Source of the DNA: Micrococcus luteus NCTC 2665
Lineage (GTDB): Bacteria; Actinomycetota; Actinomycetes; Actinomycetales; Micrococcaceae
Direction: 5' to 3'
Assembly (NCBI RefSeq): GCF_000023205.1
Contig: NC_012803.1
Location: 2,160,001 to 2,192,000, forward strand
Length of the DNA: 32,000 bases
Shown here: piece after piece, positions 10,192-27,550 of the stretch
Layout of the letters: each line of letters begins with the position of its first letter
Numbering within the stretch: the first letter of the stretch is position 1
Made by a program: the position numbers and the translations under genes
The notes under the pieces: model-generated
What the model was told of the DNA's origin: nothing
The model's input: the letters and a program-made list of their open reading frames with translations, nothing else
The model's database searches: none

Positions 10192-11322
10192 TCACTTCAG
10201 GAAGTCGCGCGCGACCTCCAGGAAGCGGTCGTTGGCCTCGACCTCGCCGATGCTCACGCGCACGCCCTCGCCCGCGAACGCCCGGACGGACAGGGCCTGG
10301 GCCTGGGCGGCCTCGGCGAACTCCTGCGTGCGCTCGCCGAGCGGCAGCCACACGAAGTTGGCCTGCGAGGCGGGCAGGTCCCAGCCGGCCTCGGCCAGGG
10401 CGGCGGCGACGCGCTCGCGCTCGTCGACGACGACCTGCACGCGCTCGAGGACCTCATCCAGGTGCTCGAGCGAGGCGATCGCAGCCTCCTCGGCCACCGT
10501 GGACACCGCGAACGGGGTGGCCACGGTGCGCAGGGCCTTCGTGATCTCCGGCTGCGAGACCGAGTAGCCCACGCGCAGGTTGGCCAGGCCGTGGGCCTTT
10601 GAGAAGGTGCGCAGCACGACGACGTTCGCGTGCTTGCGGTACATGTCCAGGCCCTTGACCGCGTCCTCGTCCCGGACGAACTCCACGTAGGCCTCGTCGA
10701 TGACCACCAGGATGTGCTCGGGCACGCGCGCCAGGAAGTCCTCGACCTCGGCGGTGGTGAGCACGGGGCCGGTCGGGTTGTTGGGGGTGCAGAGCAGGAT
10801 CACCCGCGTGCGCTCGGTGATCGCGTCCAGCATGGCCGGCAGGTCGTGGCGGTGGTCCGCGGTGAGCGGCACCTGCACATCCACGGCGCCGGCGGTGCGC
10901 ACCACGATCGGGTAGGCCTCGAAGCTGCGCCACGCGAAGATCACCTCGTCGCCCTCACTGGCCTCGCCGTGGCCGGCGAAAGTGGTGATGACCTGGGCCA
11001 GGGCGCCGAGGGAGCCGGCGCCGGTCACGACGTCGTCCGCCGGGACGTCCAGGTGCGCGGCCAGGGCCTGGCGCAGGCCGGTGGAGAGGGTGTCCGGGTA
11101 GCGGCAGAGCGTGCTGGGCGCGCCCTCCGGGCCGGTCACGACCTCGCGCACCCGCTCGATCACGCCGGGCACGGGGGCGAACGGGTTCTCGTTCGACGAG
11201 AGCTTGTAGGGCTGCAGGCCCGGGACCGCGACCGGCGGCTTGCCGGCAGCGTACGGCGGGAGCATCCCGACCTTCTTGTGCGGGGCGACCACGGCGGGCG
11301 CCTGCTGTGCGTCATCAGTCAT
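10192..11322 (-). CDS. Class II pyridoxal-phosphate aminotransferase (histidinol-phosphate / aromatic amino acid aminotransferase family)
   Basis: Family hallmarks are LSSNENPF.P, NPTG and the PLP-lysine motif FSKAHGLANLRVGY. The start is set to ATG 11322 (MTDDAQQAP...). The aromatic-catabolic context suggests a phenylalanine/tyrosine transaminase role, but that is inference. Confidence 0.85.
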   Translation of the reverse strand: MTDDAQQAPAVVAPHKKVGMLPPYAAGKPPVAVPGLQPYKLSSNENPFAPVPGVIERVREVVTGPEGAPSTLCRYPDTLSTGLRQALAAHLDVPADDVVTGAGSLGALAQVITTFAGHGEASEGDEVIFAWRSFEAYPIVVRTAGAVDVQVPLTADHRHDLPAMLDAITERTRVILLCTPNNPTGPVLTTAEVEDFLARVPEHILVVIDEAYVEFVRDEDAVKGLDMYRKHANVVVLRTFSKAHGLANLRVGYSVSQPEITKALRTVATPFAVSTVAEEAAIASLEHLDEVLERVQVVVDERERVAAALAEAGWDLPASQANFVWLPLGERTQEFAEAAQAQALSVRAFAGEGVRVSIGEVEANDRFLEVARDFLK

Positions 11323-11379
11323 GGCCACCAGGGTAATGCGGGCCGCGGACACTGTGAGCCGCCCCACGGGTCCCGGGGA

Positions 11380-12108
11380 TCAGGCTGCGCCGAACTCGGC
11401 GGCCACGGCCCGGGCCGCCTGCTCGAGCCGGTCGCCGAGGCGCGCGGGGTCTTCGGGCCGCGTCGCATAGACCACGGCGAGGGCGGCGGGCAGCTGACCC
11501 GGGGCCTGCAGCGGCACGGCGACGGAGGAGACGCCGGTGATGACCTCGTCGGTGCTGACGGCCCAGCCGCGCTCCCGCACGTCCTCGAGCTCGGGCCGCT
11601 CGGGCGGGGCGTCACCGTGCAGCCGTACCCATTCCTGCCCGGGCAGGGCGACGGCGATCGCCATCCCCGGCGCGCCGACCCCGAGGGGATGCCGTGTCCC
11701 GGGCCGCTGGGTGACGAGGTTGCCGCTGGGCGGCTCGGCCGTGGCCAAGGTGAGGCAGTGCGCGCCGTCCCACACCACAAGGAACGCGGTCATGCCCAGG
11801 TCGGTGGAGACGGCGGTCAGGTGCGGCATGGCCGCCGCGCGCAGGTCCTGCTCCACCCGGCGGGCGAGGACGGCCAGGCCGGGGGCGGCGTGGACGCGGC
11901 CGAGGCCGTCGCGGCGCAGCAGGCCGTGGGCCTCGAAGGTGCGCAGCACGCGGTAGGCCACCGAGCGGTGGACCCCCAGACCGTCGGCGAGGTCGGCGAT
12001 GGTGGGCGGCTCGGGCGCCTCCACGACCGTCTCGAGCAGCGTGAGCGCGCGGGAGAGCGTCTGGGAGGGCGCGCCCTCCCGGCCGGGGCCGCCGTCGTGC
12101 TCTGTCAT
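11380..12108 (-). CDS. IclR family transcriptional regulator
   Basis: The N-terminal wHTH reads LSRALTLLETV......TIADLADGLGVHRSVAYRVLRTFEAHGLL, followed by a C-terminal IclR effector-domain-like region. It is divergent from the hydroxylase gene and sits upstream of the aminotransferase on the same strand. Confidence 0.85.
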   Translation of the reverse strand: MTEHDGGPGREGAPSQTLSRALTLLETVVEAPEPPTIADLADGLGVHRSVAYRVLRTFEAHGLLRRDGLGRVHAAPGLAVLARRVEQDLRAAAMPHLTAVSTDLGMTAFLVVWDGAHCLTLATAEPPSGNLVTQRPGTRHPLGVGAPGMAIAVALPGQEWVRLHGDAPPERPELEDVRERGWAVSTDEVITGVSSVAVPLQAPGQLPAALAVVYATRPEDPARLGDRLEQAARAVAAEFGAA

Positions 12109-12211
12109 CCGTGCTCCTCACCGCGTGTGCCGGACGCGACGCGCCCGGGGCGTCATAGACCCGCGCACCGATTGTGAACGCAGTCACGTCGGCGTACAGT
12201 CTGGCACACAC

Positions 12212-12250
12212 GTGTTCCCAGGGGGAACGCCGTGTTCTCTGAGAGAACAC
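12212..12250. promoter_or_regulatory. Two adjacent palindromes with GTGTTC / GAACRC half-sites in the iclR-hydroxylase divergent spacer, a candidate IclR operator
   Basis: GTGTTCCCAGGGGGAACGC lies at 12212-12230. GTGTTCTCT-G-AGAGAACAC lies at 12232-12250 and has perfect 9-bp arms. The second ends 54 nt upstream of the hydroxylase start. Confidence 0.45.
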
Positions 12251-12304
12251 ACTCCGGGTGGCACGCGCGCCGCGCAGCGACATCCCCCGCAGCGAAAGGA
12301 CCCC

Positions 12305-14218
12305 ATGCTCTTCCACCACCACGGCTATGTCTCCACGAACCCGCGCGTCCAGGTGGCGGCCGGCATCGGCCTCGACCGCCCCGCCGAGCTGCCCGACGAG
12401 ATGGACGTGCTGATCGTCGGCTCCGGCCCGGCCGGCATGATCGCCGCCGCCCAGCTCGCGATGTTCCCGGACGTCCACACCCGCATCATCGAGCGCCGCC
12501 CCCACCGCCTCGAGATCGGCCAGGCCGACGGCATCCAGGCCCGCTCCGTGGAGACCTTCCAGGCCTTCGGCTTCGCGAGCGAGATCATCGACGAGGCCTA
12601 CGACCTGACCTCCATGGCGTTCTGGAACCCGGCCGCTGACGACGCGGACACGATCGTGCGCACCTCTCTGGCCGAGGACGACCCGGAGGGCATCTCCGAG
12701 TTCCCGCACCTGATCGTGAACCAGGCCCGCATCCTGGACTGGTTCGCCGAGTACATGAAGAACTCCCCCACCCGCGCGGAGCCGGACTACGGCTGGGCGT
12801 TCGAGGGCCTCGAGGACACGACCGAGGGCGAGTACCCCGTGCTCGTGACCCTGCGCCGCACCGTGGACGCCGAGGGCAACGCCCTCGAGGACCCGGCCTC
12901 GGGCCCGACCCGCCAGGTGCGTGCCAAGTACGTGGTGGGCGCGGACGGGGCGGGCTCCCGCGTCCGCAAGTCGATCGGCCACGCCCTGTCCGGCGACGCC
13001 GCGAACCACGCGTGGGGCGTCATGGACGCACTGGCCGACACGAACTTCCCGGACATCCGCACCAAGTGCGCGATCCACTCGTCCAGCGGCTCGATCCTCC
13101 TGATCCCGCGCGAGGGCGGCCACCTGTTCCGCATGTACGTGGACCTGGGCGAGGTCCCGGCGGACGACAACCACAAGGTGCGCCAGACCCCGCTCGAGGA
13201 GATCATCCGCCGGGCCCAGCAGATCCTGCGCCCCTACACGCTGGAGGTGAAGGAGGTCGCCTGGCACTCGGTGTACGAGGTGGGCCACCGCCTGACCTCG
13301 GGCTTCGACAACCGCGAGCGCGTGGACCACCCCAACGTGTTCCTGCTCGGCGACGCCTGCCACACCCACTCCGCGAAGGCCGGCCAGGGCATGAACGTGT
13401 CCATGCAGGACGGCTGGAACCTGGGCTGGAAGCTGGGCCAGGTGCTCTCCGGGATGGCCCCGGCCGAGCTCGTGCCGACCTACTCGGAGGAGCGCAAGGA
13501 GATCGCCAAGAACCTGATCGACTTCGACAAGGAGTGGTCGACGCTCATGGCGAAGCCCACCTCCGAGCTGGGCGACCCGAACGAGGTGGCCGAGTTCTAC
13601 ACGAAGACCGCCGAGTTCCCGGCCGGCTTCATGACGGAGTACCAGCCCTCCCTCCTCACCACGGACGCCACCGGCCAGGCGCTGGCGCAGGGCTTCCCGA
13701 TCGGCAAGCGCTTCAAGTCCGCCCTGGTGGAGCGCTCGTGCGACACCAACGTCAAGCACCTGGGCCACCTGCACCGCGCGGACGGCCGCTGGCGTGTCTA
13801 CGTGTTCGCCGACGCCGCCTCCCCGCGCGCCGAGGACTCGAAGGTCGCGGCGTGGGCGAAGGCGATCGAGGAGGACCCGCACTCGTTCCGCAACCGCCAC
13901 ACCCCGTCGGACGGCCCCGAGGACGCGCGCTTCGACGTCAAGGTCGTGTACCAGCAGAAGCAGACCGAGTTCGCCCACCCGGACGTGCCCTCGGTCTTCC
14001 GGCCGACCACCGGCCCCCTCGGCCTGCACGACCTGAACAACATCTTCGCCACGTGCCAGCCCAAGCACGGTGAGGACATCTTCGAGGCCCGCGGCATCAG
14101 CCGTGACGGCGCCGTCGTCGTGGTCCGCCCGGACCAGTACGTCTCCGGCGTCTTCGGCCTGGACGAGGTCGACCGCCTGAACGCGTTCTTCGCGGGCGTG
14201 CTGCTCGACGCGAACTGA
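12305..14218 (+). CDS. FAD-dependent aromatic-ring hydroxylase (phenol 2-monooxygenase / 3-hydroxybenzoate 4-monooxygenase family, with a C-terminal thioredoxin-like domain)
   Basis: The protein is 637 aa from ATG 12305, with AAAGGA upstream. Motifs are the GxGxxG (VLIVGSGPAGMIAAAQL), DG motif (VGADGAGSRVRK) and GD motif (VFLLGDACHTHSAKAGQGMN.SMQD..NLGWKL). The extra ~200-aa C-terminal extension is typical of the phenol-hydroxylase subgroup. Substrate is not determinable from sequence alone. Confidence 0.85.
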   Translation: MLFHHHGYVSTNPRVQVAAGIGLDRPAELPDEMDVLIVGSGPAGMIAAAQLAMFPDVHTRIIERRPHRLEIGQADGIQARSVETFQAFGFASEIIDEAYDLTSMAFWNPAADDADTIVRTSLAEDDPEGISEFPHLIVNQARILDWFAEYMKNSPTRAEPDYGWAFEGLEDTTEGEYPVLVTLRRTVDAEGNALEDPASGPTRQVRAKYVVGADGAGSRVRKSIGHALSGDAANHAWGVMDALADTNFPDIRTKCAIHSSSGSILLIPREGGHLFRMYVDLGEVPADDNHKVRQTPLEEIIRRAQQILRPYTLEVKEVAWHSVYEVGHRLTSGFDNRERVDHPNVFLLGDACHTHSAKAGQGMNVSMQDGWNLGWKLGQVLSGMAPAELVPTYSEERKEIAKNLIDFDKEWSTLMAKPTSELGDPNEVAEFYTKTAEFPAGFMTEYQPSLLTTDATGQALAQGFPIGKRFKSALVERSCDTNVKHLGHLHRADGRWRVYVFADAASPRAEDSKVAAWAKAIEEDPHSFRNRHTPSDGPEDARFDVKVVYQQKQTEFAHPDVPSVFRPTTGPLGLHDLNNIFATCQPKHGEDIFEARGISRDGAVVVVRPDQYVSGVFGLDEVDRLNAFFAGVLLDAN

Positions 14219-14252: not shown

Positions 14253-15785
14253 TCACCGGGATCCCGGGGGCAGGTGGCCCCCCTCCGGCGGCGTGCGACG
14301 CAGGCGCACCGCCCGACTCGAGGCCACGGTCCCCGCGGTCAGCCCGGCCAACGCGGCGGAGAGCCCGGCGACCTCCGCCCGGGCCGCGGGCTCGGCGGCC
14401 TCGAACTGCCGGATCAGGTTCACCTGGCCCTCGAAGTCGTGGGCGGCGTCCAGGTCGCCCTTCACCGCCGGCGGAGAGCCGGTCCGGAAGCCACCCCCGG
14501 GCACGTCCCACCCGTGGCCGGCCGGGTGGAAGACCACCTCGGCCCGGCGCGACGAGACGGGGGTGGGCGCCCCGTCCGCGGCGACGGCCAGGTCCCCGTC
14601 CGAGGAGAACTCCAGCACCGCGGCCCGCCCGGTCTCCACCGCGTTGCCGGACGGCGCCGCGATCGTCATGACGCCGGCCACGGGGTACACGGACGTGAAG
14701 TCCTCCCGGCCGGCCAGGTTCACGGCGTGCACCCCGCCCTGGGAGTAGCCGGCCAGGACGAGCGGGGCGCCGTGCGGGACGCCGGCCGCCTCGAGCGCCG
14801 CCCGCACCGCCGGGGCCGTGACCTCGGACTCGGAGCCGAGGGCGTCCAGCAGTCCGCCGGCGTCCCACGGGTCGGTCGACTCGGGATCCGGGATCAGGCC
14901 GCCGCGGGTGCCCGGCAGGCCCACCACCCAGGCGCGGCTCCCGTTCTCCCGCACCACCTCCGTGACCGTGAGGTCCCCGTCCCCCTCCCCACGCGGGATG
15001 AGAGAGGCCAGCCCCGTGGCCGAGCCGTCCAGCAGGGCGGGCGCGGTCGGCCGGTCCTGCGGCGCCCCGTGCGGGGTCACCGCGCCCCGGGGCGCCGCGC
15101 CGGCGAGGGTCAGGGCGTCCGCCGCCACGGTCCACGCCTCGTCCGGGGAGACCCGCAGCGCCTCGGTGAGGTCCGACGCGGCGTCCGTCCCCTTCTTCGC
15201 CGCGGTGGAGACGGGCCGCTTCAGCACGCGCTTCTGCGCCCTCGTCAGCATCTTCACGTCGATCCGTGCCAGGGCCGCGAGCAGGGGGAACCCGGTGGCC
15301 GCGAGCGCGGCGGACACGATGGCCTCGGGCACCGCCTGGACGAGGTCCTGCACGAGCCGCTCCGCCTCGCGGGTGGTGAGGCCGTCATGGCCGTCCCGCC
15401 AGAGCAGCGCCGGCAGCTCCCCCAGGGAGGCGTCCTCGGCGGCCATGATGCCGGCCGCCGCGCGCTCGGCCTCCTCGTAGCGGGCCGCCGCGGAGAGCAG
15501 GTCGCGGTGCAGCTCGGCGCACTGCTCCGACAGGCTCCGCACCCGACCGACCGCCTCCACCAGCCGTTCCTGCAGCAGGGCGGCGGAGGCGAGCCACGTG
15601 GCCGACCGGCCCAGCCCGAAGGCGGCCGCGTCGACCTGCCACGAGGCTCCGGCCGCCTCTTCGGCGGCGTGCTCGTGCCGCCCGGCCACGACGCGCATCT
15701 CCTCGGCCTCCGCGTAGATCGAGCCCGGTCCGCCGTGCGTGCTGAAGGCCACCGCCCCCGGGCCGGCACCCCGCCCGCCGGTCAC
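14253..15785 (-). CDS. Protein with a helical ESAT-6/LXG-like N-terminal region and a C-terminal alpha/beta-hydrolase (lipase/esterase-type, GYSQGG nucleophile elbow)
   Basis: The ORF is open from 16340. The start is proposed at GTG 15785, which overlaps the TGA of the upstream gene as GTGA. The first ~170 aa are Ala/Glu/Leu-rich and predicted helical, with YAEAE and ARYEEAE (YxxxE) motifs. The C-terminal region has LVLAGYSQGGVHA (encoded at 14733-14750), a GxSxG-type elbow. There is no signal peptide. Confidence 0.65.
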   Translation of the reverse strand: MTGGRGAGPGAVAFSTHGGPGSIYAEAEEMRVVAGRHEHAAEEAAGASWQVDAAAFGLGRSATWLASAALLQERLVEAVGRVRSLSEQCAELHRDLLSAAARYEEAERAAAGIMAAEDASLGELPALLWRDGHDGLTTREAERLVQDLVQAVPEAIVSAALAATGFPLLAALARIDVKMLTRAQKRVLKRPVSTAAKKGTDAASDLTEALRVSPDEAWTVAADALTLAGAAPRGAVTPHGAPQDRPTAPALLDGSATGLASLIPRGEGDGDLTVTEVVRENGSRAWVVGLPGTRGGLIPDPESTDPWDAGGLLDALGSESEVTAPAVRAALEAAGVPHGAPLVLAGYSQGGVHAVNLAGREDFTSVYPVAGVMTIAAPSGNAVETGRAAVLEFSSDGDLAVAADGAPTPVSSRRAEVVFHPAGHGWDVPGGGFRTGSPPAVKGDLDAAHDFEGQVNLIRQFEAAEPAARAEVAGLSAALAGLTAGTVASSRAVRLRRTPPEGGHLPPGSR

Positions 15786-16219
15786 GCCGCCACCGCCAAC
15801 GAGCGCAGGACGGCCAGCGCCGTCTCCTCGGCCGCCTGCTCCCGGGCCTCGGCGTCTCGGCGTGCGTCCTCCGCCTCCCGCTCGGCGGTGGCCCGCAGGG
15901 CGAGCCACTCCCCGGCCTCCCGTTCGAGCTCCGCCGCCAGGGTCGCCGCCCGCCGCACGGCCTCCCCATAGGCGCCGGCGGCCTCCCCGCGCCATGCCGT
16001 GTGCATCGCCGAGCGCACGTCCGTGGCGGCGCTGACCAGCCCGCCCAGCGCCGTGCGCAGCTGCGTCTGGGCCACGGCGAGGTCGGCGAGGGCCTGCTCG
16101 GCGGCCTCCCGCTCGCGCCGGGCGGGGTCGGCCCACGCGGCCAGGCGGGCGGCGTCGTCGTCGAGTCCGACGGCCCGCAGGGCCGTGGCGATCTGCTGAG
16201 GTCCGATGAGGGGTGGCAT
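15782..16219 (-). CDS. Small all-helical protein with a central W-x-G motif (WXG100-like)
   Basis: The protein is 145 aa from ATG 16219. Long Ala/Glu/Arg-rich helices flank HTAWRGEAAGAY (W-R-G). Its stop overlaps the start of the hydrolase gene. The family assignment is tentative. Confidence 0.5.
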   Translation of the reverse strand: MPPLIGPQQIATALRAVGLDDDAARLAAWADPARREREAAEQALADLAVAQTQLRTALGGLVSAATDVRSAMHTAWRGEAAGAYGEAVRRAATLAAELEREAGEWLALRATAEREAEDARRDAEAREQAAEETALAVLRSLAVAA

Positions 16220-16369
16220 GCGGCCACCGTAGGGAGGGCCCGGGTCCCGCGACCGCGGCGCGGGGCGGTCCGGGGATGGGGGACGCCGTCGGAACGCCTG
16301 TGCAGGAGCCAACCCTCCCGCACCGTCCCGGCGGCCGCATCGCACCCGGGTCGCACCGGCTCCGGCGTG

Positions 16370-16398
16370 TTGACCGAGGTCACACCCTGGCCTATCCT
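16370..16398 (+). promoter_or_regulatory. Candidate sigma-70-type promoter of the paaABCDE-paaG operon
   Basis: TTGACC (16370-16375), a 17-nt spacer, then TATCCT (16393-16398). A paralogous architecture, including a CACACC box in the spacer, occurs at 22910-22939. Confidence 0.5.
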
Positions 16399-16427
16399 GA
16401 ACGAGCGGTCAGTAATTCGGTGCGCCC
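16392..16427. promoter_or_regulatory. Candidate PaaR-type (TetR family) operator overlapping the paaA promoter
   Basis: The block CCTGAACGAGCGGTCAGTAATTCGGTGCGCCC is shared with 22943-22974. The right half, AACGAGCGGTCAGT, fits NNCGNNCGGTNAGT of the Corynebacterium glutamicum PaaR motif ACTNACCGNNCGNNCGGTNAGT, as I recall it. Confidence 0.55.
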
Positions 16428-16478
16428 CGGTGCGCCCTGACCACGGAACCAGCCCGCACTCAGCGTGAGGTGATCCCC

Positions 16479-17486
16479 ATGACGCAGACCAGCTCCCCCC
16501 AGCACCTGGCCTCCGTCCCGTCCCCCGAGGATGCGGCCGGCCAGGAGAACTTCGATCGCCTGATCGCGGAGGACTCGCGCATCGAGCCCCGCGACTGGAT
16601 GCCCGAGGCGTACCGCAAGTCCCTGACCCGCCAGGTCTCCCAGCACGCCCACTCCGAGATCATCGGCATGCAGCCGGAGGCCAACTGGATCACCCGCGCC
16701 CCCTCCCTGAAGCGCAAGGCGATCCTCATGGCCAAGGTCCAGGACGAGGCCGGCCACGGCCTGTACCTGTACTCCGCCGCCGAGACCCTCGGCACCCCGC
16801 GGGACGAGCTGAACGAGCAGCTGCTCTCCGGCCGCGCGAAGTACTCCTCGATCTTCAACTACCCGGCCCGCACCTGGGCGGACATGGGCGCGATCGGCTG
16901 GCTCGTCGACGGCGCCGCGATCTGCAACCAGGTGCCGCTGTGCCGCGCCTCCTACGGCCCGTACGGCCGCGCGATGGTGCGCGTCTGCAAGGAGGAGTCG
17001 TTCCACCAGCGCCAGGGCTGGGAGATCCTCTACAAGCTCTCGCACGGCACCCCCGAGCAGAAGCAGATGGCCCAGGACGCCGTGGACCGCTTCTACGGCC
17101 CCGCCCTGCAGATGTTCGGCCCGCCGGATGATGACTCCCCCAACTCCCGCCAGTCCATGGCGTGGAAGGTCAAGCGCTTCTCCAACGACGACCTGCGCCA
17201 GCGCTTCGTGGACATGATCGTCCCGCAGGCCGAGGCTCTCGGCCTCACCCTGCCGGACCCGGACCTGAAGTGGAACGAGGAGCGCGGCCACTACGACTTC
17301 GGCGAGCTGGACTGGGACGAGTTCATGTCCGTGATCAAGGGCGACGGCCCCATGAACACCCAGCGCATGGCCCGCCGCATCCAGGCCCACGAGGAGGGCG
17401 CCTGGGTCCGCGAGGCCGCCGCCGCCTACGCCCGCCGCCAGGCCGAGCAGAACGCGCCGGCCGAGACCCACCTGATCGGAGCCTGA
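16479..17486 (+). CDS. paaA: 1,2-phenylacetyl-CoA epoxidase, catalytic subunit A
   Basis: Di-iron motifs and PaaA-typical runs are present: [15 protein letters not shown]...[47 protein letters not shown]. The start is ATG 16479, after GAGGTG. Confidence 0.92.
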
Positions 17487-17489
17487 CCC

Positions 17490-17792
17490 ATGAGCGAGAC
17501 CACCGCCGCCTCCCACGCCTGGCCCCTGTGGGAGGTCTTCGTCCGCGCCAACCGCGGCCTCTCCCACGTGCATGCCGGTTCGCTGCACGCCCCGGACGCC
17601 ACCCTGGCGCTGCGCAACGCGCGGGACCTGTACACCCGCCGCAACGAGGGCACCTCCGTGTGGGTCGTCCCGGCCGAGGCCATCGCGGCCTCCGACCCGG
17701 ACTCCAAGGGCGGCTTCTTCGAGTCCCCGCAGGGCAAGTCCTACCGTCACGCCACCTACTACCAGCAGTCCGAGGGGGTGCCGCACCTGTGA
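17490..17792 (+). CDS. paaB: 1,2-phenylacetyl-CoA epoxidase, subunit B
   Basis: The protein is 100 aa. WPLWEVFVR...GL.H.H.GSLHA.D...AL.NARD.Y.RR.EG.S.WVV is the PaaB signature. It lies immediately after paaA. Confidence 0.92.
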   Translation: MSETTAASHAWPLWEVFVRANRGLSHVHAGSLHAPDATLALRNARDLYTRRNEGTSVWVVPAEAIAASDPDSKGGFFESPQGKSYRHATYYQQSEGVPHL

Positions 17793-18622
17793 GCTTCGCG
17801 ACCAACGACTCCGCCACGAAGCACTCCGCGGGCGTGGCCATCACCGCGGAGGAGATCGCGGCCGGCGAGCAGAAGACGAGCGACGACGTCGCCCGCTACG
17901 CCCTCGCCCTCGGTGACGACGCCCTGATGCTCGGCCAGCGCCTGTCCTGGTGGATCTCGCGCGCCCCGGAGCTCGAGGAGGACATCGCCCTGGGCAACAT
18001 CGCCCTGGACCTCGTGGGCCACGCCCGCTTCCTCCTCTCCTACGCCGGCACGGCGTGGGGCAGGACCGAGGACGAGCTCGCGTACTTCCGCGACGAGGAG
18101 GAGTTCCGCTCCGTCCGCCTCGTGGAGGCCGAGAACGGCGACTTCGCCAAGACCATCGCCCGCCAGCTGTACTACTCGTTCTACTCGTACGAGCTGTACA
18201 CCCGCCTGCGCGAGTCCACGGACCCCACGCTCGCCGCCATCGCGGACAAGGCCCTCAAGGAGGTCCTGTACCACCAGGACCACGCCGCCCTGTGGCTGCA
18301 GCGCCTGGGCCTGGGCACCGAGGAGTCGAAGCGTCGCATGCAGCGCGGCCTGGACGAGCTGTGGCCCTACGTGGCTGAGCTCTTCCACGACGACGACGTC
18401 GTCCGCGCCCTCGCCGAGCAGGGCGTCGCCGTGCTGCCGTCCTCGCTCGAGGAGCCGACGATGACCCGCATCCGCGCGGCCATCGAGGAGGCCGGCCTGA
18501 CCGTCCCGACGACGGGCACCGCCCGCGGCGGCGACCGTTCCGGCGCCATGAGCGAGTACCGCGGGTACATCCTCGCGGAGATGCAGTCCCTGGCGCGCCG
18601 TCACCCGGGAGCGACCTGGTGA
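17789..18622 (+). CDS. paaC: 1,2-phenylacetyl-CoA epoxidase, subunit C
   Basis: The GTG 17789 start overlaps the paaB stop as GTGA. LALGDDALMLGQRLSWWISRAPELEEDIALGNIALDL.G.AR is typical of PaaC. Gene order supports the call. Confidence 0.88.
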   Translation: MSFATNDSATKHSAGVAITAEEIAAGEQKTSDDVARYALALGDDALMLGQRLSWWISRAPELEEDIALGNIALDLVGHARFLLSYAGTAWGRTEDELAYFRDEEEFRSVRLVEAENGDFAKTIARQLYYSFYSYELYTRLRESTDPTLAAIADKALKEVLYHQDHAALWLQRLGLGTEESKRRMQRGLDELWPYVAELFHDDDVVRALAEQGVAVLPSSLEEPTMTRIRAAIEEAGLTVPTTGTARGGDRSGAMSEYRGYILAEMQSLARRHPGATW

Positions 18623-19128
18623 CCACCGCCGGCGAGCTGCGCCCCGCCGATCCCGCCGATGCGCGGGTCTGGGATGCGGCCTCCACCGTGCACGACCCGG
18701 AGATCCCCGTGCTGTCCATCGCGGACCTGGGGATCCTCCGGGAGGCACGGGTCGAGGGCGAGAGGGCCGTCGTCGTCATCACGCCCACCTATTCCGGCTG
18801 TCCCGCCATGGACACCATCACCACGGACGTCGCCCGCGCGCTCGGGCGCGCCGGGTTCCCCGACGCCGAGGTGCGCCTGGTGCTCCAGCCGGCGTGGACC
18901 ACGGACTGGATGACGGACGAGGGCAAGGCCAAGCTCAACGAGTACGGCATCGCCCCGCCCGTCGCGCGCACCACGGACGGCCCGGTCCGGATCGGCATGG
19001 CCGTGAAGTGCCCGCGCTGCCACTCCCTGAACACCCGCGAGATCACCCGCTTCGGCTCCACCTCCTGCAAGGCCCTCTACACCTGCCGGGAGTGCCTCGA
19101 GCCCTTCGACTACTTCAAGGTGCACTGA
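18619..19128 (+). CDS. paaD: Phenylacetate-CoA oxygenase subunit PaaD (PaaJ in some nomenclatures)
   Basis: The GTG 18619 start overlaps the paaC stop as GTGA. V.DPE.PV.SI.DLG.....V.......V.ITPTYSGCPAM is present, together with a C-terminal Cys cluster (CPRC....C...Y.C..C.EPF..FK). Confidence 0.88.
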   Translation: MTTAGELRPADPADARVWDAASTVHDPEIPVLSIADLGILREARVEGERAVVVITPTYSGCPAMDTITTDVARALGRAGFPDAEVRLVLQPAWTTDWMTDEGKAKLNEYGIAPPVARTTDGPVRIGMAVKCPRCHSLNTREITRFGSTSCKALYTCRECLEPFDYFKVH

Positions 19129-20297
19129 TGACCGAGACCACCGACGCCCCCACCACCGGCAAGCGCCGCGCCACGTTCAACACCCTCGAGGTGTCCGAGC
19201 TGCGCCGCCTGACCGACGACTCCGTGGAGGTCACCTTCGCGGTGCCCGAGGAGCTCGCCGACGACTACGACTACGTGCCGGGCCAGTACGTGGCCCTGCG
19301 CAAGGAGCTCGACGGCGCCGAGGTGCGCCGGTCCTACTCGATCTGCGCCGTCCCGAAGCGCGGTGAGATCCGCGTGGCCGTGAAGAAGGACATCGGCGGC
19401 AGGTTCTCCACGTGGGCCAACGAGAGCCTCGAGGTCGGCGAGAAGATCGACGTGATGAACCCGCAGGGCGCGTTCACGTCCCGCACGCACGTCACCTCCC
19501 TCAACGACGCCCAGAAGGTGGCGGCGGAGAAGGTCGCGGAGAAGAAGGACACGCACCTGGTGGCGTTCGCGGCCGGCTCGGGCATCACCCCGATCATGGC
19601 GATCGCCAAGGCCGTGCTCGCGGCCTCCGAGACCTCGCGCTTCGACCTGGTCTACGCGAACCGCTCCGCCATGGACGTGATGTTCGCCGAGGAGATCGGC
19701 GACCTCAAGGACAAGTACCCGGCCCGGTTCACGGTGCACCACGTGCTCTCCCGAGAGCAGCGCGTGTCCCCGCTGCTCTCCGGCCGCATCGACGAGGACA
19801 AGCTCACCACCCTCCTGGACCGCGTGATCGACGTGGAGGGCACCGACGAGTGGTTCCTCTGCGGCCCGTTCGAGCTCGTGCAGCTCACCCGTGAGACGCT
19901 CGCCGCCCGCGGCGTGTCCGAGGACGACGTGCGCTTCGAGCTGTTCACCACCGGCCGCCCGGAGAACCCGCAGGGCCACTCCGGCCGCGTGGTGGAGGTG
20001 GACCCGAAGGGCGACAACGTGACCATCGAGTTCAACCTCGACGGCCTCACCGCCAAGGTCGAGTCCCCCAAGTCCGCCCACGAGACGGTCCTCAACGCCG
20101 CGCTGCGCGTCCGCTCGGACGTGCCCTTCGCGTGCGCCGGCGGCGTGTGCGGCACCTGCCGCGCCAAGGTCGTCGACGGCGCGTACGAGATGGACGAGAA
20201 CTACGCGCTCGAGAAGGACGAGGTGGAGAAGGGCTACGTGCTCACGTGCCAGACCCGCCCGACCTCCGACTCGATCACGCTCGACTTCGACGCCTGA
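19128..20297 (+). CDS. paaE: Phenylacetyl-CoA epoxidase reductase subunit (FNR-like FAD/NAD domains plus a plant-type 2Fe-2S domain)
   Basis: The ATG 19128 start overlaps the paaD stop by 1 nt. Motifs are RSYSIC (FAD-binding RxYS), GSGITP (NAD) and the C-terminal CAGGVCGTCRAKV...C ferredoxin motif. Confidence 0.9.
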   Translation: MTETTDAPTTGKRRATFNTLEVSELRRLTDDSVEVTFAVPEELADDYDYVPGQYVALRKELDGAEVRRSYSICAVPKRGEIRVAVKKDIGGRFSTWANESLEVGEKIDVMNPQGAFTSRTHVTSLNDAQKVAAEKVAEKKDTHLVAFAAGSGITPIMAIAKAVLAASETSRFDLVYANRSAMDVMFAEEIGDLKDKYPARFTVHHVLSREQRVSPLLSGRIDEDKLTTLLDRVIDVEGTDEWFLCGPFELVQLTRETLAARGVSEDDVRFELFTTGRPENPQGHSGRVVEVDPKGDNVTIEFNLDGLTAKVESPKSAHETVLNAALRVRSDVPFACAGGVCGTCRAKVVDGAYEMDENYALEKDEVEKGYVLTCQTRPTSDSITLDFDA

Positions 20298-20328
20298 GCG
20301 CCCGCCCACGAGACCGAAGGAGCCCCCG

Positions 20329-21114
20329 ATGATCGAGATCACCGTCGAGAACGGCGTCGCCGAGATCGTGTTGGACGCCCCCCAGAGGATGAACGCCCTG
20401 GACGATGCCGCGCTGGCCGAACTCCAGGCCGCCTACGAGCGGGCCGCCGCCGGCGTCGAGTCCGGCGAGGTCCGGGCCGTGCTGCTGCGCGGCGAGGGCC
20501 GCGGCTTCTGCGCGGGCCGCGACATCTCCGCCGTGGTCCCGGCCGAGGACGACGCCACCGCCTACCTGCGGGACAGGGTCACCCCGGTGCTGCGGGCCAT
20601 GTCCGAGATCCCGGTGCCCACCTTCGCCGCGGTGCAGGGCGCCTGCCTGGGCGTGGGCCTCGGCCTCGCGATCGCCACGGACGTGGTGTACGTGGCCGAG
20701 GACGCGAAGATCGGCTCGCCGTTCGCGAACCTCGGGGCCACCCTGGACTCGGGCGGCCACTGGCTGTTCACCGAGCGCCTGGGCGCGCACCGCACCCTGG
20801 ACCTGATCTACACGGCCGAGCTCCTCTCGGGCGCCGAGGCCGTCCAGGCCGGGCTGTTCTCCCGGGCCCTGCCCGCGGACGAGCTGCTCGAGTTCACCCG
20901 CGCCAAGGTCGCCCAGGTGGCCTCCGGCGCGACCCTCGCGTTCCGCGCGTCGAAGGAGCTCGTGGCCCAGGTCCGCGACCACCGTGTGGGCCTGTGGGAG
21001 TCCCTCGGCGCGGAGAACATCGCCCAGGGCGAGCTCTGCGGCACCGCCGACTACGCCGAGGGCTTCCAGGCCTTCCAGGAGAAGCGGAAGCCGGAGTTCA
21101 CCGGCCGCGGCTGA
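20329..21114 (+). CDS. paaG: Enoyl-CoA hydratase/isomerase family protein, probably 1,2-epoxyphenylacetyl-CoA isomerase
   Basis: The crotonase fold reads LLRGEGRGFCAGRDIS and F.NLG...DSGG.WL...LG. The C-terminus ADYAEGFQAFQEKRKPEFTG resembles the E. coli PaaG tail (ADYREGVSAFLAKRSPQFTG). It follows paaE, with GAAGGAG 5 nt upstream. Assigning PaaG rather than PaaF is inference. Confidence 0.75.
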   Translation: MIEITVENGVAEIVLDAPQRMNALDDAALAELQAAYERAAAGVESGEVRAVLLRGEGRGFCAGRDISAVVPAEDDATAYLRDRVTPVLRAMSEIPVPTFAAVQGACLGVGLGLAIATDVVYVAEDAKIGSPFANLGATLDSGGHWLFTERLGAHRTLDLIYTAELLSGAEAVQAGLFSRALPADELLEFTRAKVAQVASGATLAFRASKELVAQVRDHRVGLWESLGAENIAQGELCGTADYAEGFQAFQEKRKPEFTGRG

Positions 21115-21132
21115 GCCGCCGCACCCCGCCAC

Positions 21133-21180
21133 CGACGACGGCGCCGCACCCTTTGCGTGAAGGGCGCGGCGCCGTCGTCG
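21133..21180 (+). terminator. Hairpin terminator after the paaA-G operon
   Basis: CGACGACGGCGCCGCACCCTT pairs with AAGGGCGCGGCGCCGTCGTCG as a 21-bp stem with one mismatch and a 6-nt loop. It begins 19 nt after the stop codon. Confidence 0.65.
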
Positions 21181-21241
21181 TCCCGGCTTGGCCGCGTCAC
21201 ATTCCCGTCATCAGCTGGGATCGTGGCGTGAGTCACAGAGG

Positions 21242-21253
21242 ATCGTATACGGT
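21242..21253. promoter_or_regulatory. ATCGTATACGGT, a near copy of the hpaH-upstream palindrome
   Basis: It matches 563-574 at 11 of 12 positions. It lies 93 nt upstream of the MFS transporter start and is flanked by GTGAC/GTCAC repeats. Confidence 0.35.
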
Positions 21254-21263
21254 GACGGGTGTC

Positions 21264-21285
21264 ACTTCCCGACCGATCGGTCGGG
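21264..21285. promoter_or_regulatory. Candidate PaaR-type operator containing the perfect 18-bp palindrome CCCGACCGATCGGTCGGG
   Basis: ACTTCCCGACCGATCGGTCGGG matches the remembered motif ACTNACCGNNCGNNCGGTNAGT at 15 of 18 specified positions. The same core is at 28768-28789. It lies 61 nt upstream of the transporter start. Confidence 0.55.
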
Positions 21286-21345
21286 AACCACACCGTCCCG
21301 CCGCCGTCTCACGGTCGGCCGCCGCCCCGCATCCCAGGAGCATCC

Positions 21346-22704
21346 ATGAGCCACACCGTCGCATCCCCCGCGGCGACCGCCCCCGCGCGTGACCGCCGCG
21401 AGGAGCGCAAGGTCATCGCCGGCACCGTCGTCGGCACCACCATCGAGTGGTACGACTTCTTCATCTTCGCCCAGGCCACCGCACTCGTCTTCGCCGCCCT
21501 CTTCTTCCAGCCGATGGGCGAGAACGGCTCCCAGATCGCCGCGTGGGCCACCCTCGGCATCTCCTTCCTCATCCGCCCGCTCGGCGCGATCATCGCCGGC
21601 CACCTCGGCGACCGCTTCGGCCGCAAGTTCGTCCTGTCCCTCACGCTGATCGGCATGGGCCTGGCCACCACCCTCATCGGCCTGCTGCCCACCTACGCCC
21701 AGATCGGTGTGTGGGCCCCGATCCTGCTCGTCGTGCTGCGCCTGCTGCAGGGCCTGTCCGCCGGCGGCGAGTGGGGCGGCGCGGCGCTGCTGTCCGTGGA
21801 GCACGCCCCCCACGGCAAGCGCGGCCTGTTCGGCTCCGCTCCGCAGATCGGCGTGCCGCTGGGCATGATCCTGGCCACCGGCGTGCTGTTCATCGTGCGC
21901 TCCACCATGTCCGAGGAGCAGTTCCTCGCCTGGGGCTGGCGCATCCCGTTCCTGATCTCCGTGGTGCTGATCGTCGTCGGCTACCTGATCCGCAAGGCCG
22001 TCGAGGAGTCCCCGGTCTTCAAGGAGATGCAGCAGCTCAAGGTGGACGAGTCCGCCCCGCTGGGCGAGCTCTTCCGGCACCACACCAAGGAGGTCATCCT
22101 CGCCGCCGTGATCTTCGCCGCGAACAACGGCGTCGGCTACCTGCTCATCGCGTGGTTCTCGAAGTACGGCGGCCCGAAGGGCCTGGGCATGACCTCCTCC
22201 GAGGTGCTCATCGCGAGCCTCATCGGCGGCGTCGGCTGGTTCATCTTCACCCTGCTCGGCGGCTGGGTCTCGGACAAGATCGGCCGCAAGCTGACCTTCG
22301 TCCTCGGCTACGGCTTCCTGATCGTCTGGGCCTTCCCGCTGTTCGGGCTGCTCAACACCGCGTCTCTGCCGCTGTTCTCGCTGGGCCTGTTCGTTCTGAC
22401 CCTCGGCCTGGGCCCGTCCTACGGCCCGCAGTCGGCGATGTACGCCGAGATGTTCCCGGCCCGCGTCCGCTTCTCCGGCGTCTCCATCGGCTACGCGCTC
22501 GGCACCATCATCGGCGGCGCCTTCGCCCCGCTGATCGCCGACCAGCTCGTGAAGACCGGCTGGGAGAACGTGGCCTGGTACATCATCGCGATCTCCGCGG
22601 TCTCGCTCATCGCCGTCCTGTTCGTCCCCAAGGGCATCCAGGACCGCGAGCTGCACGATGAGCAGGTCGTGGCCACGCGCTCGAACCCGGTGGTGCCGGC
22701 CTGA
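21346..22704 (+). CDS. MFS transporter, metabolite:H+ symporter (MHS) subfamily; a likely aromatic/organic acid importer
   Basis: The protein is 452 aa with about 12 hydrophobic segments. The MHS-type N-terminus reads GT.VGTTIEWYDFFI...A.ALVF..LFF, followed by GHLGDRFGRK and LRLLQGLSAGGEWGGA. AGGAG lies upstream of ATG 21346. Confidence 0.85.
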   Translation: MSHTVASPAATAPARDRREERKVIAGTVVGTTIEWYDFFIFAQATALVFAALFFQPMGENGSQIAAWATLGISFLIRPLGAIIAGHLGDRFGRKFVLSLTLIGMGLATTLIGLLPTYAQIGVWAPILLVVLRLLQGLSAGGEWGGAALLSVEHAPHGKRGLFGSAPQIGVPLGMILATGVLFIVRSTMSEEQFLAWGWRIPFLISVVLIVVGYLIRKAVEESPVFKEMQQLKVDESAPLGELFRHHTKEVILAAVIFAANNGVGYLLIAWFSKYGGPKGLGMTSSEVLIASLIGGVGWFIFTLLGGWVSDKIGRKLTFVLGYGFLIVWAFPLFGLLNTASLPLFSLGLFVLTLGLGPSYGPQSAMYAEMFPARVRFSGVSIGYALGTIIGGAFAPLIADQLVKTGWENVAWYIIAISAVSLIAVLFVPKGIQDRELHDEQVVATRSNPVVPA

Positions 22705-22740
22705 TCCGGCCCGCCTGACGGGCTGCGCCCGTCCCCACCC

Positions 22741-22786
22741 CACGACGACGGCGCGTCCCCCTCCGGAAGGGCGCGCCGTCGTCGTG
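22741..22786 (+). terminator. Hairpin terminator after the MFS transporter gene
   Basis: CACGACGACGGCGCGTCCC ... GGGCGCGCCGTCGTCGTG is an imperfect stem of about 18 bp. It begins 37 nt after the stop codon. Confidence 0.6.
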
Positions 22787-22812
22787 CGGTGCGCGGGCCG
22801 GACCGGACCGGC

Positions 22813-22870
22813 GCCGAGGCCCGCAGACACGCCGCCACGTCGGGGACGAAGCGGCGGGTCTGCGGGCCTC
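22813..22870. repeat. Family B 58-nt hairpin repeat, copy B1
   Basis: The sequence is GCCGAGGCCCGCAGACACGCCGCCACGTCGGGGACGAAGCGGCGGGTCTGCGGGCCTC. It has the same length, ends and stem as 27487-27544 and 28610-28667. Confidence 0.7.
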
Positions 22871-22909
22871 AGCGCGGGGCGCGCTGTCCCGTCACACCCG
22901 CCCCCGCAG

Positions 22910-22939
22910 TTGACCCCCATCACACCGGCCCGGGATACT
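22910..22939 (+). promoter_or_regulatory. Candidate promoter of the paaJ-paaF-paaH operon
   Basis: TTGACC (22910-22915), an 18-nt spacer containing CACACC, then GATACT (22934-22939). It is paralogous to the paaA promoter. Confidence 0.5.
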
Positions 22940-22942
22940 GAA

Positions 22943-22974
22943 CCTGAACGCACGGTCGGTAATTCGCCGCGCCC
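22943..22974. promoter_or_regulatory. Candidate PaaR-type operator downstream of the paaJ promoter
   Basis: CCTGAACGCACGGTCGGTAATTCGCCGCGCCC matches 16396-16427 at 27 of 32 positions. Confidence 0.55.
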
Positions 22975-23004
22975 GCCCCGTCGTCGGTCACTCAAGGAGT
23001 CTCC

Positions 23005-24222
23005 ATGTCCGCACAGTCCCAGGCCCTGCTCGTCGGCGGTCGCCGCACGCCCGTCGGCAAGTACGGCGGTGCCCTCTCCTCCGTCCGCCCCGACGACCTC
23101 GCCGCCCTGACCGTCAAGGCCGTGATCGAGGACGCCGGCATCGACCCGTCGGTCGTGGACGACGTCATCCTCGGCAACGCCAACGGCGCCGGCGAGGAGA
23201 ACCGCAACGTCGCCCGCATGGCCTGGCTGCTGGCCGGCTTCCCGGACACCGTCCCGGGCATCACCGTGAACCGCCTCTGCGCGTCCGGCATGTCCGCGAT
23301 CGGCATCGCCACCGCGATGGTGCGCTCCGGGATGGCCGACGTCGTCGTGGCCGGCGGCGTGGAGTCGATGTCCCGCGCCCCCTGGGTGATGGAGAAGCCG
23401 ACGACGGCGTTCGCCAAGCCCGGCGCGGCCTTCGACACCGCGATCGGCTGGCGCTTCGTGAACCCCCGCTTCGCGGACGGCGAGTTCGGGGAGAAGTTCA
23501 CCTTCTCCATGCCGGAGACCGCCGAGGAGGTCGGCGAGGTGGACGGCATCACCCGCGAGGACGCCGACGCCTTCGCCGCCCGCTCGCACGAGCGCGCGCT
23601 GGCCGCCATCGAGGCCGGCCGCTTCACGGACGAGATCGTGCCCGTCGTCGTCACGGGCCGCAAGGGCGCCGAGACGGTCGTGGACACGGACGAGGGCCCC
23701 CGCCCCGGCTCCACCCCCGAGGTGCTCGCCGGCCTGCGCCCGATCATCAAGCCGGGCGGCGTGGTCACCGCGGGCAACTCCTCCTCCCTCAACGACGGCG
23801 CCTCGGCGATCCTCGTCGTCTCCGAGCGGGCCGCGCAGAAGTACGGCCTGACCCCGCGGGCCCGCGTCGTGGAGTCCACCTCGGCGGGCCTGGCCCCCGA
23901 GATCATGGGCCTGGGCCCCGTCCCGGCCACCGAGAAGGCCCTCGAGCGCTCCGGCTGGTCCGTGGCGGACCTGGGCGCCGTCGAGCTCAACGAGGCCTTC
24001 GCCACCCAGTCCCTGGCCTCGATGCGGCGCCTCGGCCTGGACCCGGAGACCGTCAACGCCGACGGCGGCGCGATCGCCCTGGGCCATCCGCTCGGCTCCT
24101 CGGGCTCGCGCCTCGTGGTCACGCTGCTCGGTCGGATGGAGCGCGAGGGCGCGGACAGGGGCCTGGCCACGATGTGCGTGGGCGTGGGCCAGGGCTCCGC
24201 GATGCTCGTCGAGAAGGTCTGA
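23005..24222 (+). CDS. paaJ: 3-oxoadipyl-CoA / 3-oxo-5,6-dehydrosuberyl-CoA thiolase (acetyl-CoA C-acyltransferase)
   Basis: Thiolase signatures are VNRLCASGM (active-site Cys), NEAFA, GGAIALGHPLG.SG and CVG.GQG. AAGGAG lies upstream. It is the first gene of a thiolase-hydratase-dehydrogenase operon in a paa context. Confidence 0.9.
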   Translation: MSAQSQALLVGGRRTPVGKYGGALSSVRPDDLAALTVKAVIEDAGIDPSVVDDVILGNANGAGEENRNVARMAWLLAGFPDTVPGITVNRLCASGMSAIGIATAMVRSGMADVVVAGGVESMSRAPWVMEKPTTAFAKPGAAFDTAIGWRFVNPRFADGEFGEKFTFSMPETAEEVGEVDGITREDADAFAARSHERALAAIEAGRFTDEIVPVVVTGRKGAETVVDTDEGPRPGSTPEVLAGLRPIIKPGGVVTAGNSSSLNDGASAILVVSERAAQKYGLTPRARVVESTSAGLAPEIMGLGPVPATEKALERSGWSVADLGAVELNEAFATQSLASMRRLGLDPETVNADGGAIALGHPLGSSGSRLVVTLLGRMEREGADRGLATMCVGVGQGSAMLVEKV

Positions 24223-24226
24223 GCGC

Positions 24227-25012: not shown

Positions 25013-25020
25013 GGACTGAC

Positions 25021-25908: not shown

Positions 25909-25920
25909 GCCCCCGGGGCA

Positions 25921-25967
25921 GGCGCTTTCGAACGGGAGATAGGGCCTATCTCCCGTTCGAAAGCGCC
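25921..25967. terminator. Perfect 22-bp-stem palindrome after paaH, either a terminator or a protein-binding site
   Basis: GGCGCTTTCGAACGGGAGATAG - GGC - CTATCTCCCGTTCGAAAGCGCC. It is noticeably less GC-rich than its surroundings. An extra half-copy, ACGTTCGAAAGTGCG, lies at 25984-25998. Confidence 0.5.
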
Positions 25968-26029
25968 CATTCCCCCGATATCACGTTCGAAAGTGCGGGG
26001 GCGGGGTCGGCGCGGCTAACGTGACGGGC

Positions 26030-26907: not shown

Positions 26908-26928
26908 CGGCCCGGCGCCCCGGCCGGC

Positions 26929-27544: not shown

Positions 27545-27550
27545 GGCGGG

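Follow-up and report, generated by a model that had tools for sequence, protein, structure and literature searches.

We analysed a 32,000-nucleotide (nt) window of the genome of Micrococcus luteus NCTC 2665 (NC_012803.1; complete, a single contig of 2.50 Mb with 100% completeness), in which two adjacent genes at positions 14253-16219 encode a small helical protein with a central W-R-G motif, hereafter the partner, and a serine hydrolase of 510 amino acids (aa). Our findings support the view that this pair has the architecture of a substrate of type VII secretion systems (T7SS), a property seen family-wide. For the family as a whole, type VII cargo is the best explanation, with a WxG partner and a YxxxD/E-bearing helical hairpin as the signal and a lipase-like enzyme as the payload. 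In NCTC 2665 itself, we favour, with a probability of about 0.55, the reading that the pair is an Esx/PE-type module that was inherited vertically and whose enzyme works without export. An earlier note on this DNA had proposed a T7SS lipase effector encoded with its targeting partner. The substrate anatomy in that proposal is supported by profile matches to EsxA, EsxB, and PE25 and by the operons of relatives, but the translocon it calls for is missing here.

The hydrolase belongs, with its partner, to a large actinobacterial family covered by no Pfam or NCBIfam model. Scans of the 510-aa protein against both databases gave no match above threshold, although a weak EspC match (E=0.034) was seen over residues 25-113. 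A word-indexed search found relatives in Micrococcus and Crystallibacter only, and an exhaustive profile search retrieved 2,772 clusters (50% identity) at E<=0.001, 1,973 of these at E<=1e-10. Most members are 400-560 aa long and share the N-terminal and C-terminal layout of the M. luteus protein. Literature searches found no published description of this hydrolase family. Five residues (G18, Y103, Ser348, Asp398, and His449) are invariant across two sets of 32 and 29 diverse members, so that Y103 is present in 32/32 and 29/29 sequences. G19 is invariant in the larger set and nearly so in the smaller one, and 28/29 members have D or E at position 107. Both YxxxE motifs previously pointed out in the N terminus, Y24AEAE28 and Y103EEAE107, are indeed present, the first of them being confined to Micrococcus.

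The N-terminal region of the hydrolase resembles one half of an Esx or PE-type pair. The AF2 model, built on a 29-sequence alignment (mean pLDDT 71, pTM 0.67), predicts a short strand at residues 13-18 followed by hairpin helices at 27-62 and 66-118 with a pLDDT of ~90. When the hydrolase-family profile was compared with PDB sequences, the top match was M. tuberculosis EsxB/CFP-10 (6j19_B, E=4.6e-4; also 3fav and 1wa8), followed by PE25 (E=0.012-0.028) and then by an Esx protein of M. abscessus. Each of these alignments spans its target from end to end, and the profile segment 'aeaYeeAEa' lies over 'GVQYSRADE' of CFP-10, so that Y103xxxE107 coincides with the YxxxD motif. EsxB and PE are the YxxxD/E-bearing halves of their respective pairs. 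The hydrolase thus shows the helix-turn-helix expected at the N terminus of a T7SS substrate, as seen both in the AF2 model and in the full-length EsxB/PE25 profile alignments, with YxxxD/E near the end of helix 2.

The adjacent gene encodes a protein that resembles the WxG-bearing half. As stated earlier, it is a 145-aa helical protein with a central W-R-G: its translation contains HTAWRGEAAGAY, and the AF2 model (pLDDT 88.6) confirms the helices, at residues 20-71 and 79-144, with HTAWRGE forming the turn. This is the layout of a WXG100-type helical hairpin with WxG (W76-R-G78) at the modelled turn, and structure prediction, which the earlier note had suggested for both proteins, therefore yielded confident helical hairpins in the partner and in the hydrolase N terminus alike. 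Pfam and NCBIfam scans of the partner gave nothing above threshold, including no match to WXG100 (PF06013), and a sequence search with it found relatives in Micrococcus only. Nevertheless, in nearly all of the relatives' loci, which cover >10 genera, a small open reading frame (ORF) on the same strand ends 0-45 nt before the hydrolase start. In genera other than Micrococcus these ORFs encode 80-100 aa, as against 145 aa in Micrococcus, and they carry a central W-x-[S/G]-x-A-[A/G]-x-x-[F/Y]. In an alignment of 23 partner sequences, with 10-26% identity outside the genus, W76 is invariant. The partner-family profile matches S. aureus EsxA (E=0.008), with 'WeSpAaraF' placed over 'WEGQAFSRF', and M. 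tuberculosis EsxB (E=0.12). Single members show weak matches to T7SS_signal, WXG100, PPE, WXG100_2, and EspC, and two of the 23 reach E=0.056 at best with the WXG100 model. In a Foldseek search, the partner model came closest to a Lap chain of the TelA-LXG-LapA3-LapA4 complex (8gmh_C, TM-score 0.72-0.75), at a non-significant E-value of 0.22.

Taken one by one, these statistics are weak; the argument is carried by independent profiles that converge and whose motifs match residue by residue. Judged from sequence, the two genes appear to encode halves that complement each other in an Esx/PE-type pair. Chance could account for an isolated WxG or YxxxE, but not for their invariance across relatives of 10-30% identity.

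The C-terminal part of the hydrolase is an enzyme domain. Residues 236-497 were modelled as an alternating strand-helix alpha/beta-hydrolase core with a pLDDT of 80-95. The G-x-S-x-G elbow (GYSQGG), together with the conserved D398 and H449 on this fold, identifies a serine hydrolase, in keeping with the assignment made in the earlier note. Family members weakly match PGAP1, Lipase_3, Thioesterase, and Cutinase models. PGAP1 (PF07819) does not match the M. luteus protein; it gives weak matches in 13/32 relatives (best 8.7e-8), and its threshold is exceeded by a hydrolase encoded beside a T7SS ATPase at locus L059 of genome G227 (32.5 vs 24.3 bits). By Foldseek, the nearest structures are EstE5 and B. 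subtilis LipA, with E-values that are not significant. The linker between hairpin and enzyme (about residues 121-235) is fast-evolving; AF2 shows it as poorly modelled helices at 123-227, with a pLDDT <50 at 148-212. Residues 154-175 of this linker pass the Kyte-Doolittle threshold and precede a strongly basic stretch. They were considered as a membrane anchor and rejected, because many family members have no such segment. Separately, in Citricoccus sp. CH26A (NZ_AFXQ01000014.1, locus L027 8933-11026) the hairpin region of the orthologue is out of frame with the remainder, and profile coverage runs from position 125 onward; the gene is a frameshifted pseudogene, or else the assembly is wrong here.

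The two genes are tightly linked. Their junction reads GCG GCG TGA over GTG ACC GGC, so that the partner TGA and the hydrolase GTG share GTGA, as had been noted earlier. In four other M. luteus assemblies, both genes were called independently with the identical 4-nt overlap, and a 4-nt stop/start overlap is found in most Micrococcus species. An alternative start that deletes the helical region is ruled out: residues 13-29 of the hydrolase, which include G18-G19, are conserved across the family, and this excludes a later start codon. No signal peptide was seen in either protein, judged by eye only. On the downstream side, the next gene encodes an FAD hydroxylase; it is convergent, its stop is 34 nt from the hydrolase gene, and the observation that no immunity-like gene follows the pair was therefore correct. 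On the upstream side, the pair's promoter is presumably within the intergenic region 16220-16469; a scan of this region found a single sigma-70-like site, on the + strand and pointing to paaA, and none on the - strand.

Direct links between the family and type VII machinery were found in relatives. In G227, a minus-strand operon (locus L059) contains genes for an FHA-EssC-like ATPase of 1,506 aa, a WxG partner of 162 aa with weak WXG100 and T7SS_signal matches, a 263-aa protein, a 503-aa hydrolase, and a 133-aa lipoprotein. A true WXG100 gene is nearby, and the ATPase gene is followed by one gene for a Ser/Thr kinase and one for a large envelope protein. Four other genomes (G162, G296, G141, and G097) have family copies 7-15 kb from EccC/EccD; in G162, a copy is preceded by a WxG partner and by a gene that weakly matches EspG (E=3.6e-4). 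Family members thus lie near a T7SS ATPase, of the EccC or the FHA-EssC type, in two genera. In a class sample of 301 genomes, the hydrolase family was present in 57 and EccC above cut-off in 70. By hand tallies, which are inflated by relatedness among genomes, 54/57 family-positive genomes have an EccC/EssC-like match beyond FtsK level. Put the other way, the family occurs in 54 of the 186 genomes with such a match and in 3 of the 115 with an FtsK-level match or none; among the three exceptions, two genomes are incomplete and one match is a fragment. As a side observation, an EccC-bearing Micrococcus (G304, locus L058, G304:C1:352000-371999) encodes EccC, an EccD-like protein, WXG100-like proteins, and a 504-aa candidate substrate. 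The surroundings of this ESX-like cluster are low in GC3 and include a transposase fragment from an insertion sequence element and a helicase-like gene, which suggests that the cluster was acquired horizontally.

No complete type VII machine is recognisable in NCTC 2665. The statement that the window holds no Ecc/Ess core genes was confirmed, and the search for eccC/essC that the earlier note had called for shows that a T7SS ATPase is essentially absent from the genome, a finding that the note itself had named as refuting its effector proposal. With the EccCa model, only two loci matched in the whole complete genome, neither at or above the 509-bit cut-off. The best match is a 982-aa protein (179 bits) aligned over model positions 449-667 only, i.e. 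one ATPase domain. The second, at 775-778 kb (107 bits), was dismissed as true FtsK, encoded beside pgsA, cinA, and recA. Models for EccB, EccD, YukC, and YukD gave nothing above threshold in the same genome, and a match to the mycosin model near 440 kb proved to be a commonplace subtilase, secreted via a signal peptide and encoded outside any ESX locus. No remnant was found by tblastn with the EccC, EccD, FHA-EssC-like ATPase, large envelope protein, and EspG-like genes of relatives. The EccC/EssC ATPase and its membrane partners, which accompany the substrate features in some relatives, are consequently lacking in NCTC 2665.

We then compared 26 related loci from Micrococcaceae, Microbacteriaceae, and one metagenome-assembled genome of the Bifidobacteriaceae. 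Their conserved order is divergent purB (the adenylosuccinate lyase gene), partner, hydrolase, a convergent Phage_holin_4_2 gene, an aminotransferase gene, and BCKDH E1a/E1b/E2; these are housekeeping genes, and no T7SS gene lies in this purB-to-BCKDH neighbourhood of the 26 loci. The pair is on the purB side in 25/25 Micrococcaceae genomes sampled. In 12/12 other Micrococcus species, the order is paaA, partner, hydrolase, hydroxylase, IclR, and aminotransferase, read only as far as each retrieved stretch extends, with the holin-like gene present between hydrolase and hydroxylase in four of the 12 loci and IclR not detected in three. In NCTC 2665, purB is found 27 kb to the right of the pair, beyond the window, and the aminotransferase gene belongs, like the pair, to the ancestral gene order. 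From this conserved synteny, the pair is the old resident, located ancestrally between purB and the aminotransferase gene, and the hydroxylase/IclR unit and the paa cluster were inserted around it. This reverses the earlier idea that the pair is an accessory insertion between two aromatic operons. In the window stretches 10195-14218 and 16470-32000, the IclR-hydroxylase unit and the paa cluster look like later insertions between purB, the pair, and the aminotransferase gene. The Phage_holin_4_2 (PF04020) gene downstream of the hydrolase is convergent and encodes a protein of 134-150 aa with four transmembrane helices (loci L012, L025, L026, L029, L032, L034, and others). In Micrococcaceae and Microbacteriaceae it accompanies the pair as a conserved neighbour, but M. 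luteus has lost it, and export through its product was rejected on account of its absence from NCTC 2665.

These findings bear on the notion that the pair is an accessory antibacterial lipase effector, inserted horizontally and exported by a canonical Ecc/Ess system whose genes lie at another place in the genome. The architecture is substrate-like, and T7SS lipase toxins such as TslA exist (PMC10730906). However, the complete genome contains neither an EccC/EssC with three ATPase domains nor a remnant of one, the pair is ancestral at its locus, and it is a single copy without an immunity gene, which also speaks against a toxin role in NCTC 2665. We regard this explanation as extremely unlikely.

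The pair is retained regardless of EccC. It is present in 13/13 Micrococcus species, only 4 of which have EccC above cut-off, and in 25/25 Micrococcaceae genomes, an ATPase of at least 300 bits being found in ~11. All 13 Micrococcus orthologues keep G18, G19, Y103, E107, S348, D398, and H449, although identity to the M. luteus hydrolase drops to 18-57% for the hairpin, 14-62% for the linker, and 27-72% for the hydrolase domain. Comparison of one pair of M. luteus strains gave dN/dS values of 0.44 (hydrolase) and 0.32 (partner), as against 0.08-0.30 for five neighbouring genes. The pair is therefore under selection and fast-evolving, independently of EccC, and because the module is intact and under selection where EccC is missing, its function in NCTC 2665 needs no EccC. 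A decaying, functionless relic of a lost secretion system could account for the absence of EccC from 9/13 Micrococcus species and for a dN/dS above that of the flanking genes. It is nevertheless very unlikely, since both reading frames are intact in 13/13 species, no variation is seen in the triad, the GG motif, or YxxxE, the coupled overlap is kept, and dN/dS is well below 1.

A further alternative is that the pair is unrelated to type VII secretion. The hairpins would then be a generic coiled-coil module that regulates, or forms the lid of, a housekeeping esterase associated with the membrane, and their resemblance to Esx proteins would be convergent. This would fit a core-genome position conserved between purB and the holin-like, aminotransferase, and BCKDH genes, the retention of the pair in more than twice as many Micrococcaceae as have a T7SS ATPase, the lack of a downstream immunity gene in NCTC 2665, and the fact that the Esx/PE homology statistics are all weak. 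It does not sit well with two independent profiles that match complementary Esx/PE halves with the signal motifs aligned, with family members inside T7SS operons in two genera, with the near absence of the family (3/115) from genomes that have no EccC-like ATPase, or with a divergence that far exceeds that of the housekeeping neighbours. We consider it unlikely.

Could the pair be exported by something other than a canonical system? The 982-aa protein has an FHA-like N terminus, two transmembrane helices, and one FtsK/SpoIIIE domain, and it is conserved across the sampled relatives. It scores 179 bits with EccCa and 167 with EssC vs 38 with FtsK, and is collinear with the FHA-EssC-like ATPase of G227, to which it is 36% identical over D1. 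In Micrococcus, its gene is beside tad-1, from which it is transcribed divergently; tad-1 is the Flp-pilus cluster needed for natural transformation (PMC4322843). The linkage with tad is adjacent in Micrococcus, 5-7 kb in two other genera, and lost in four of seven genera, and a search for conserved neighbours around the ATPase gene found nothing. DNA uptake and a minimal T7SS motor are both candidate roles. The genome also encodes an orphan WXG100 protein (69 bits) with WRG and a C-terminal YQDAE, whose gene has groEL and a two-component system close by and no T7SS genes near it. This gene is kept in 39/41 Micrococcales relatives (60-70 bits) whatever their EccC status, EccC-less Micrococcus included.

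One may hence imagine that the pair and the orphan WXG100 protein are exported by a minimal, non-canonical type VII-like route with the 982-aa ATPase as motor. The ATPase is far nearer the EccCa/EssC than the FtsK models. By hand tally, WXG100 is present in 170/186 genomes with an EccC-like match beyond FtsK level vs 4/115 without; it is also present in 14/15 relatives that have the short ATPase alone, and G324, one of two relatives without an ATPase match, lacks WXG100 and the hydrolase alike. The invariance of YxxxE and WxG in EccC-less genomes and the fast, effector-like divergence of the pair pull in the same direction. What pulls away from this reading is that the ATPase has one recognisable P-loop domain, the substrate-binding D2-D3 of EccC/EssC not being seen, that YukD, YukC, EccB, EccD, and TsdI-like partners are absent, and that the tad-1 neighbourhood and a faint similarity to CedB, a DNA importer, make DNA uptake a competing role. 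Moreover, the co-occurrence counts are confounded by relatedness among genomes. On balance this explanation is doubtful. By extension, and just as tentatively, Micrococcus and many other Micrococcales might run a stripped-down, undescribed type VII-like route built on a ~1,000-aa ATPase that has FHA and transmembrane parts and only one ATPase domain that can be recognised, with the core orphan WXG100 protein and the pair as its conserved cargo.

According to the reading that we favour, that of a vertically inherited Esx/PE-type module acting without export, the partner is a WXG100-like hairpin and supplies the WxG-bearing half, as does EsxA or PPE, while the first ~120 residues of the hydrolase are an EsxB/PE-like hairpin and supply the half that carries YxxxD/E. 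Translation of the two genes is coupled, and this coupling, along with their conserved adjacency, makes it most likely that the products form a heterodimeric four-helix bundle, which would be joined via the variable linker to a serine esterase/lipase domain with Ser348, Asp398, and His449. In relatives with an ESX-4-like EccC or an FHA-bearing, EssC/TsdC-like ATPase, the bundle would act as export signal and the hydrolase as cargo; there, operons of this kind contain the module, in some cases along with an EspG-like gene and a lipoprotein that may be an immunity protein. In NCTC 2665, the enzyme is most likely cell-associated, unless an unrecognised exporter exists, and the bundle might serve as a holding or regulatory domain by analogy with the PE domain of LipY. 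That domain is reported to modulate lipase activity, and LipY to act both intracellularly and after ESX-5 export (PMC4536007).

Several observations weigh against this interpretation. Helical hairpins in general resemble Esx proteins, and the Foldseek similarity of the hydrolase hairpin to B. anthracis EsxB (TM-score 0.72-0.78) has E-values that are not significant. The sequence links to Esx/PE proteins are all weak, with E from 5e-4 to 0.01, neither the partner nor the hydrolase reaches a Pfam or NCBIfam threshold, and hhalign of the partner family with the genome's own WXG100 protein gave a probability of 5% over 30 columns. Divergence is very fast, with 28-64% identity between congeners vs 56-95% for flanking genes. 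Neither this divergence nor the invariance of YxxxE and WxG in EccC-less genomes is easily explained by a cell-associated role.

Table 1. Features of the partner-hydrolase locus in the window, and of other genes discussed in the text
Feature	Location	Strand	Description and basis
Partner gene	window 15782..16219	-	145-aa WXG100-like helical hairpin; translation, AF2, family alignment, EsxA profile match
Codons for W76-R77-G78	window 15986..15994	-	Hairpin turn; translation and AF2 model
GTGA overlap	window 15782..15785	-	Partner stop over hydrolase start codon; translational coupling
Hydrolase gene	window 14253..15785	-	510 aa; Esx/PE-like hairpin, variable linker, serine alpha/beta-hydrolase
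N-terminal domain, residues 13-120	window 15426..15749	-	Strand with G18-G19, helices 27-62 and 66-118
Codons for Y103-E-E-A-E107	window 15465..15479	-	Conserved YxxxD/E; family alignments, alignment with CFP-10 YSRAD
Hydrophobic segment, residues 154-175	window 15261..15326	-	In linker 121-235; Kyte-Doolittle maximum 1.98
Alpha/beta-hydrolase domain, residues 236-497	window 14295..15080	-	AF2 and Ser348/Asp398/His449 triad
Codons for G346-Y-S-Q-G-G351	window 14733..14750	-	Nucleophile elbow; translation and family alignment
Intergenic region common with divergent paaA	window 16220..16469	none	Putative promoter of the pair
982-aa FHA-TM-FtsK-like ATPase gene	genome 808835-811783 (locus L001 673-3621)	-	FHA-like N terminus, two transmembrane (TM) helices, one FtsK/SpoIIIE domain
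Orphan WXG100 gene	genome 448656-448946 (locus L003)	-	69 bits; WRG and C-terminal YQDAE
263-aa gene between WxG partner and hydrolase (G227)	locus L059 6260-7051	-	Counterpart in locus L060 weakly matches EspG
133-aa lipoprotein gene after hydrolase (G227)	locus L059 4453-4854	-	Candidate immunity protein

Type VII cargo is well studied in mycobacteria and Firmicutes and hardly elsewhere in Actinomycetota. The family described here is a new candidate cargo family in which the full bipartite signal, WxG in the partner and YxxxD/E in the cargo, is fused to a lipase-like enzyme, and it is a candidate substrate for actinobacterial ESX-4-like and FHA-type systems. The copy on the purB side is more conserved than any secretion machine, and its signal motifs are invariant even where EccC is missing. 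Either there is a second role outside secretion for Esx-type bundles, such as was suggested for LipY's PE domain, or an unrecognised export route exists. M. luteus itself is harmless, naturally transformable, and in laboratory use, and thus suited to direct study of both.

Among known systems, LipY and the PE/PPE pairs share with the M. luteus pair a YxxxD/E helical hairpin fused N-terminally to a serine lipase/esterase, and a WxG partner, through which targeting operates in PE/PPE pairs. LipY is a triacylglycerol lipase of M. tuberculosis and an ESX-5 substrate, for which a modulating hairpin and both internal and exported roles are described (PMC4536007). The M. luteus hydrolase differs from it in having no PE-family Pfam match and in being PGAP1/LipA-like rather than of the hormone-sensitive-lipase type, and its partner is WXG100-like (~100-145 aa) and not a PPE protein, in a monoderm host without an ESX system. 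With EsxA/EsxB (ESAT-6/CFP-10), the pair has in common adjacent genes and complementary hairpins, one with a WxG turn and the other with YxxxD/E near the end of helix 2. In contrast to EsxA/EsxB, the M. luteus hairpin is fused to 390 residues of linker and enzyme, both halves are below the WXG100 Pfam threshold, and the partner family has mostly W-x-S, not W-x-G.

LXG toxins with their Lap partners (TelA-LapA3-LapA4) and TslA-TlaA1/A2-TilA likewise have an enzyme cargo that depends on adjacent small helical partners. TslA is a phospholipase cargo of the T7SSb with a lipoprotein immunity protein (PMC10730906), and the hydrolase gene at locus L059 is similarly followed by a lipoprotein gene. Unlike these systems, the M. 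luteus pair has no LXG domain, one partner instead of two or three, and no immunity gene, and it comes from Actinomycetota. In TslA/Tsl1, an N-terminal lipase precedes an LXG-like domain at the C terminus; the M. luteus hydrolase has the opposite order, with a canonical N-terminal hairpin, and does not belong to that type. Finally, the T7SSd of Actinomycetota has an FHA-bearing TsdC ATPase and a TsdD kinase (Garrett et al. 2024, PMC11217815). Locus L059 of G227 resembles its published layout in gene arrangement, and M. luteus has no such locus. The orphaned status of the pair, without a translocon, is the unusual feature of an otherwise known type of module.

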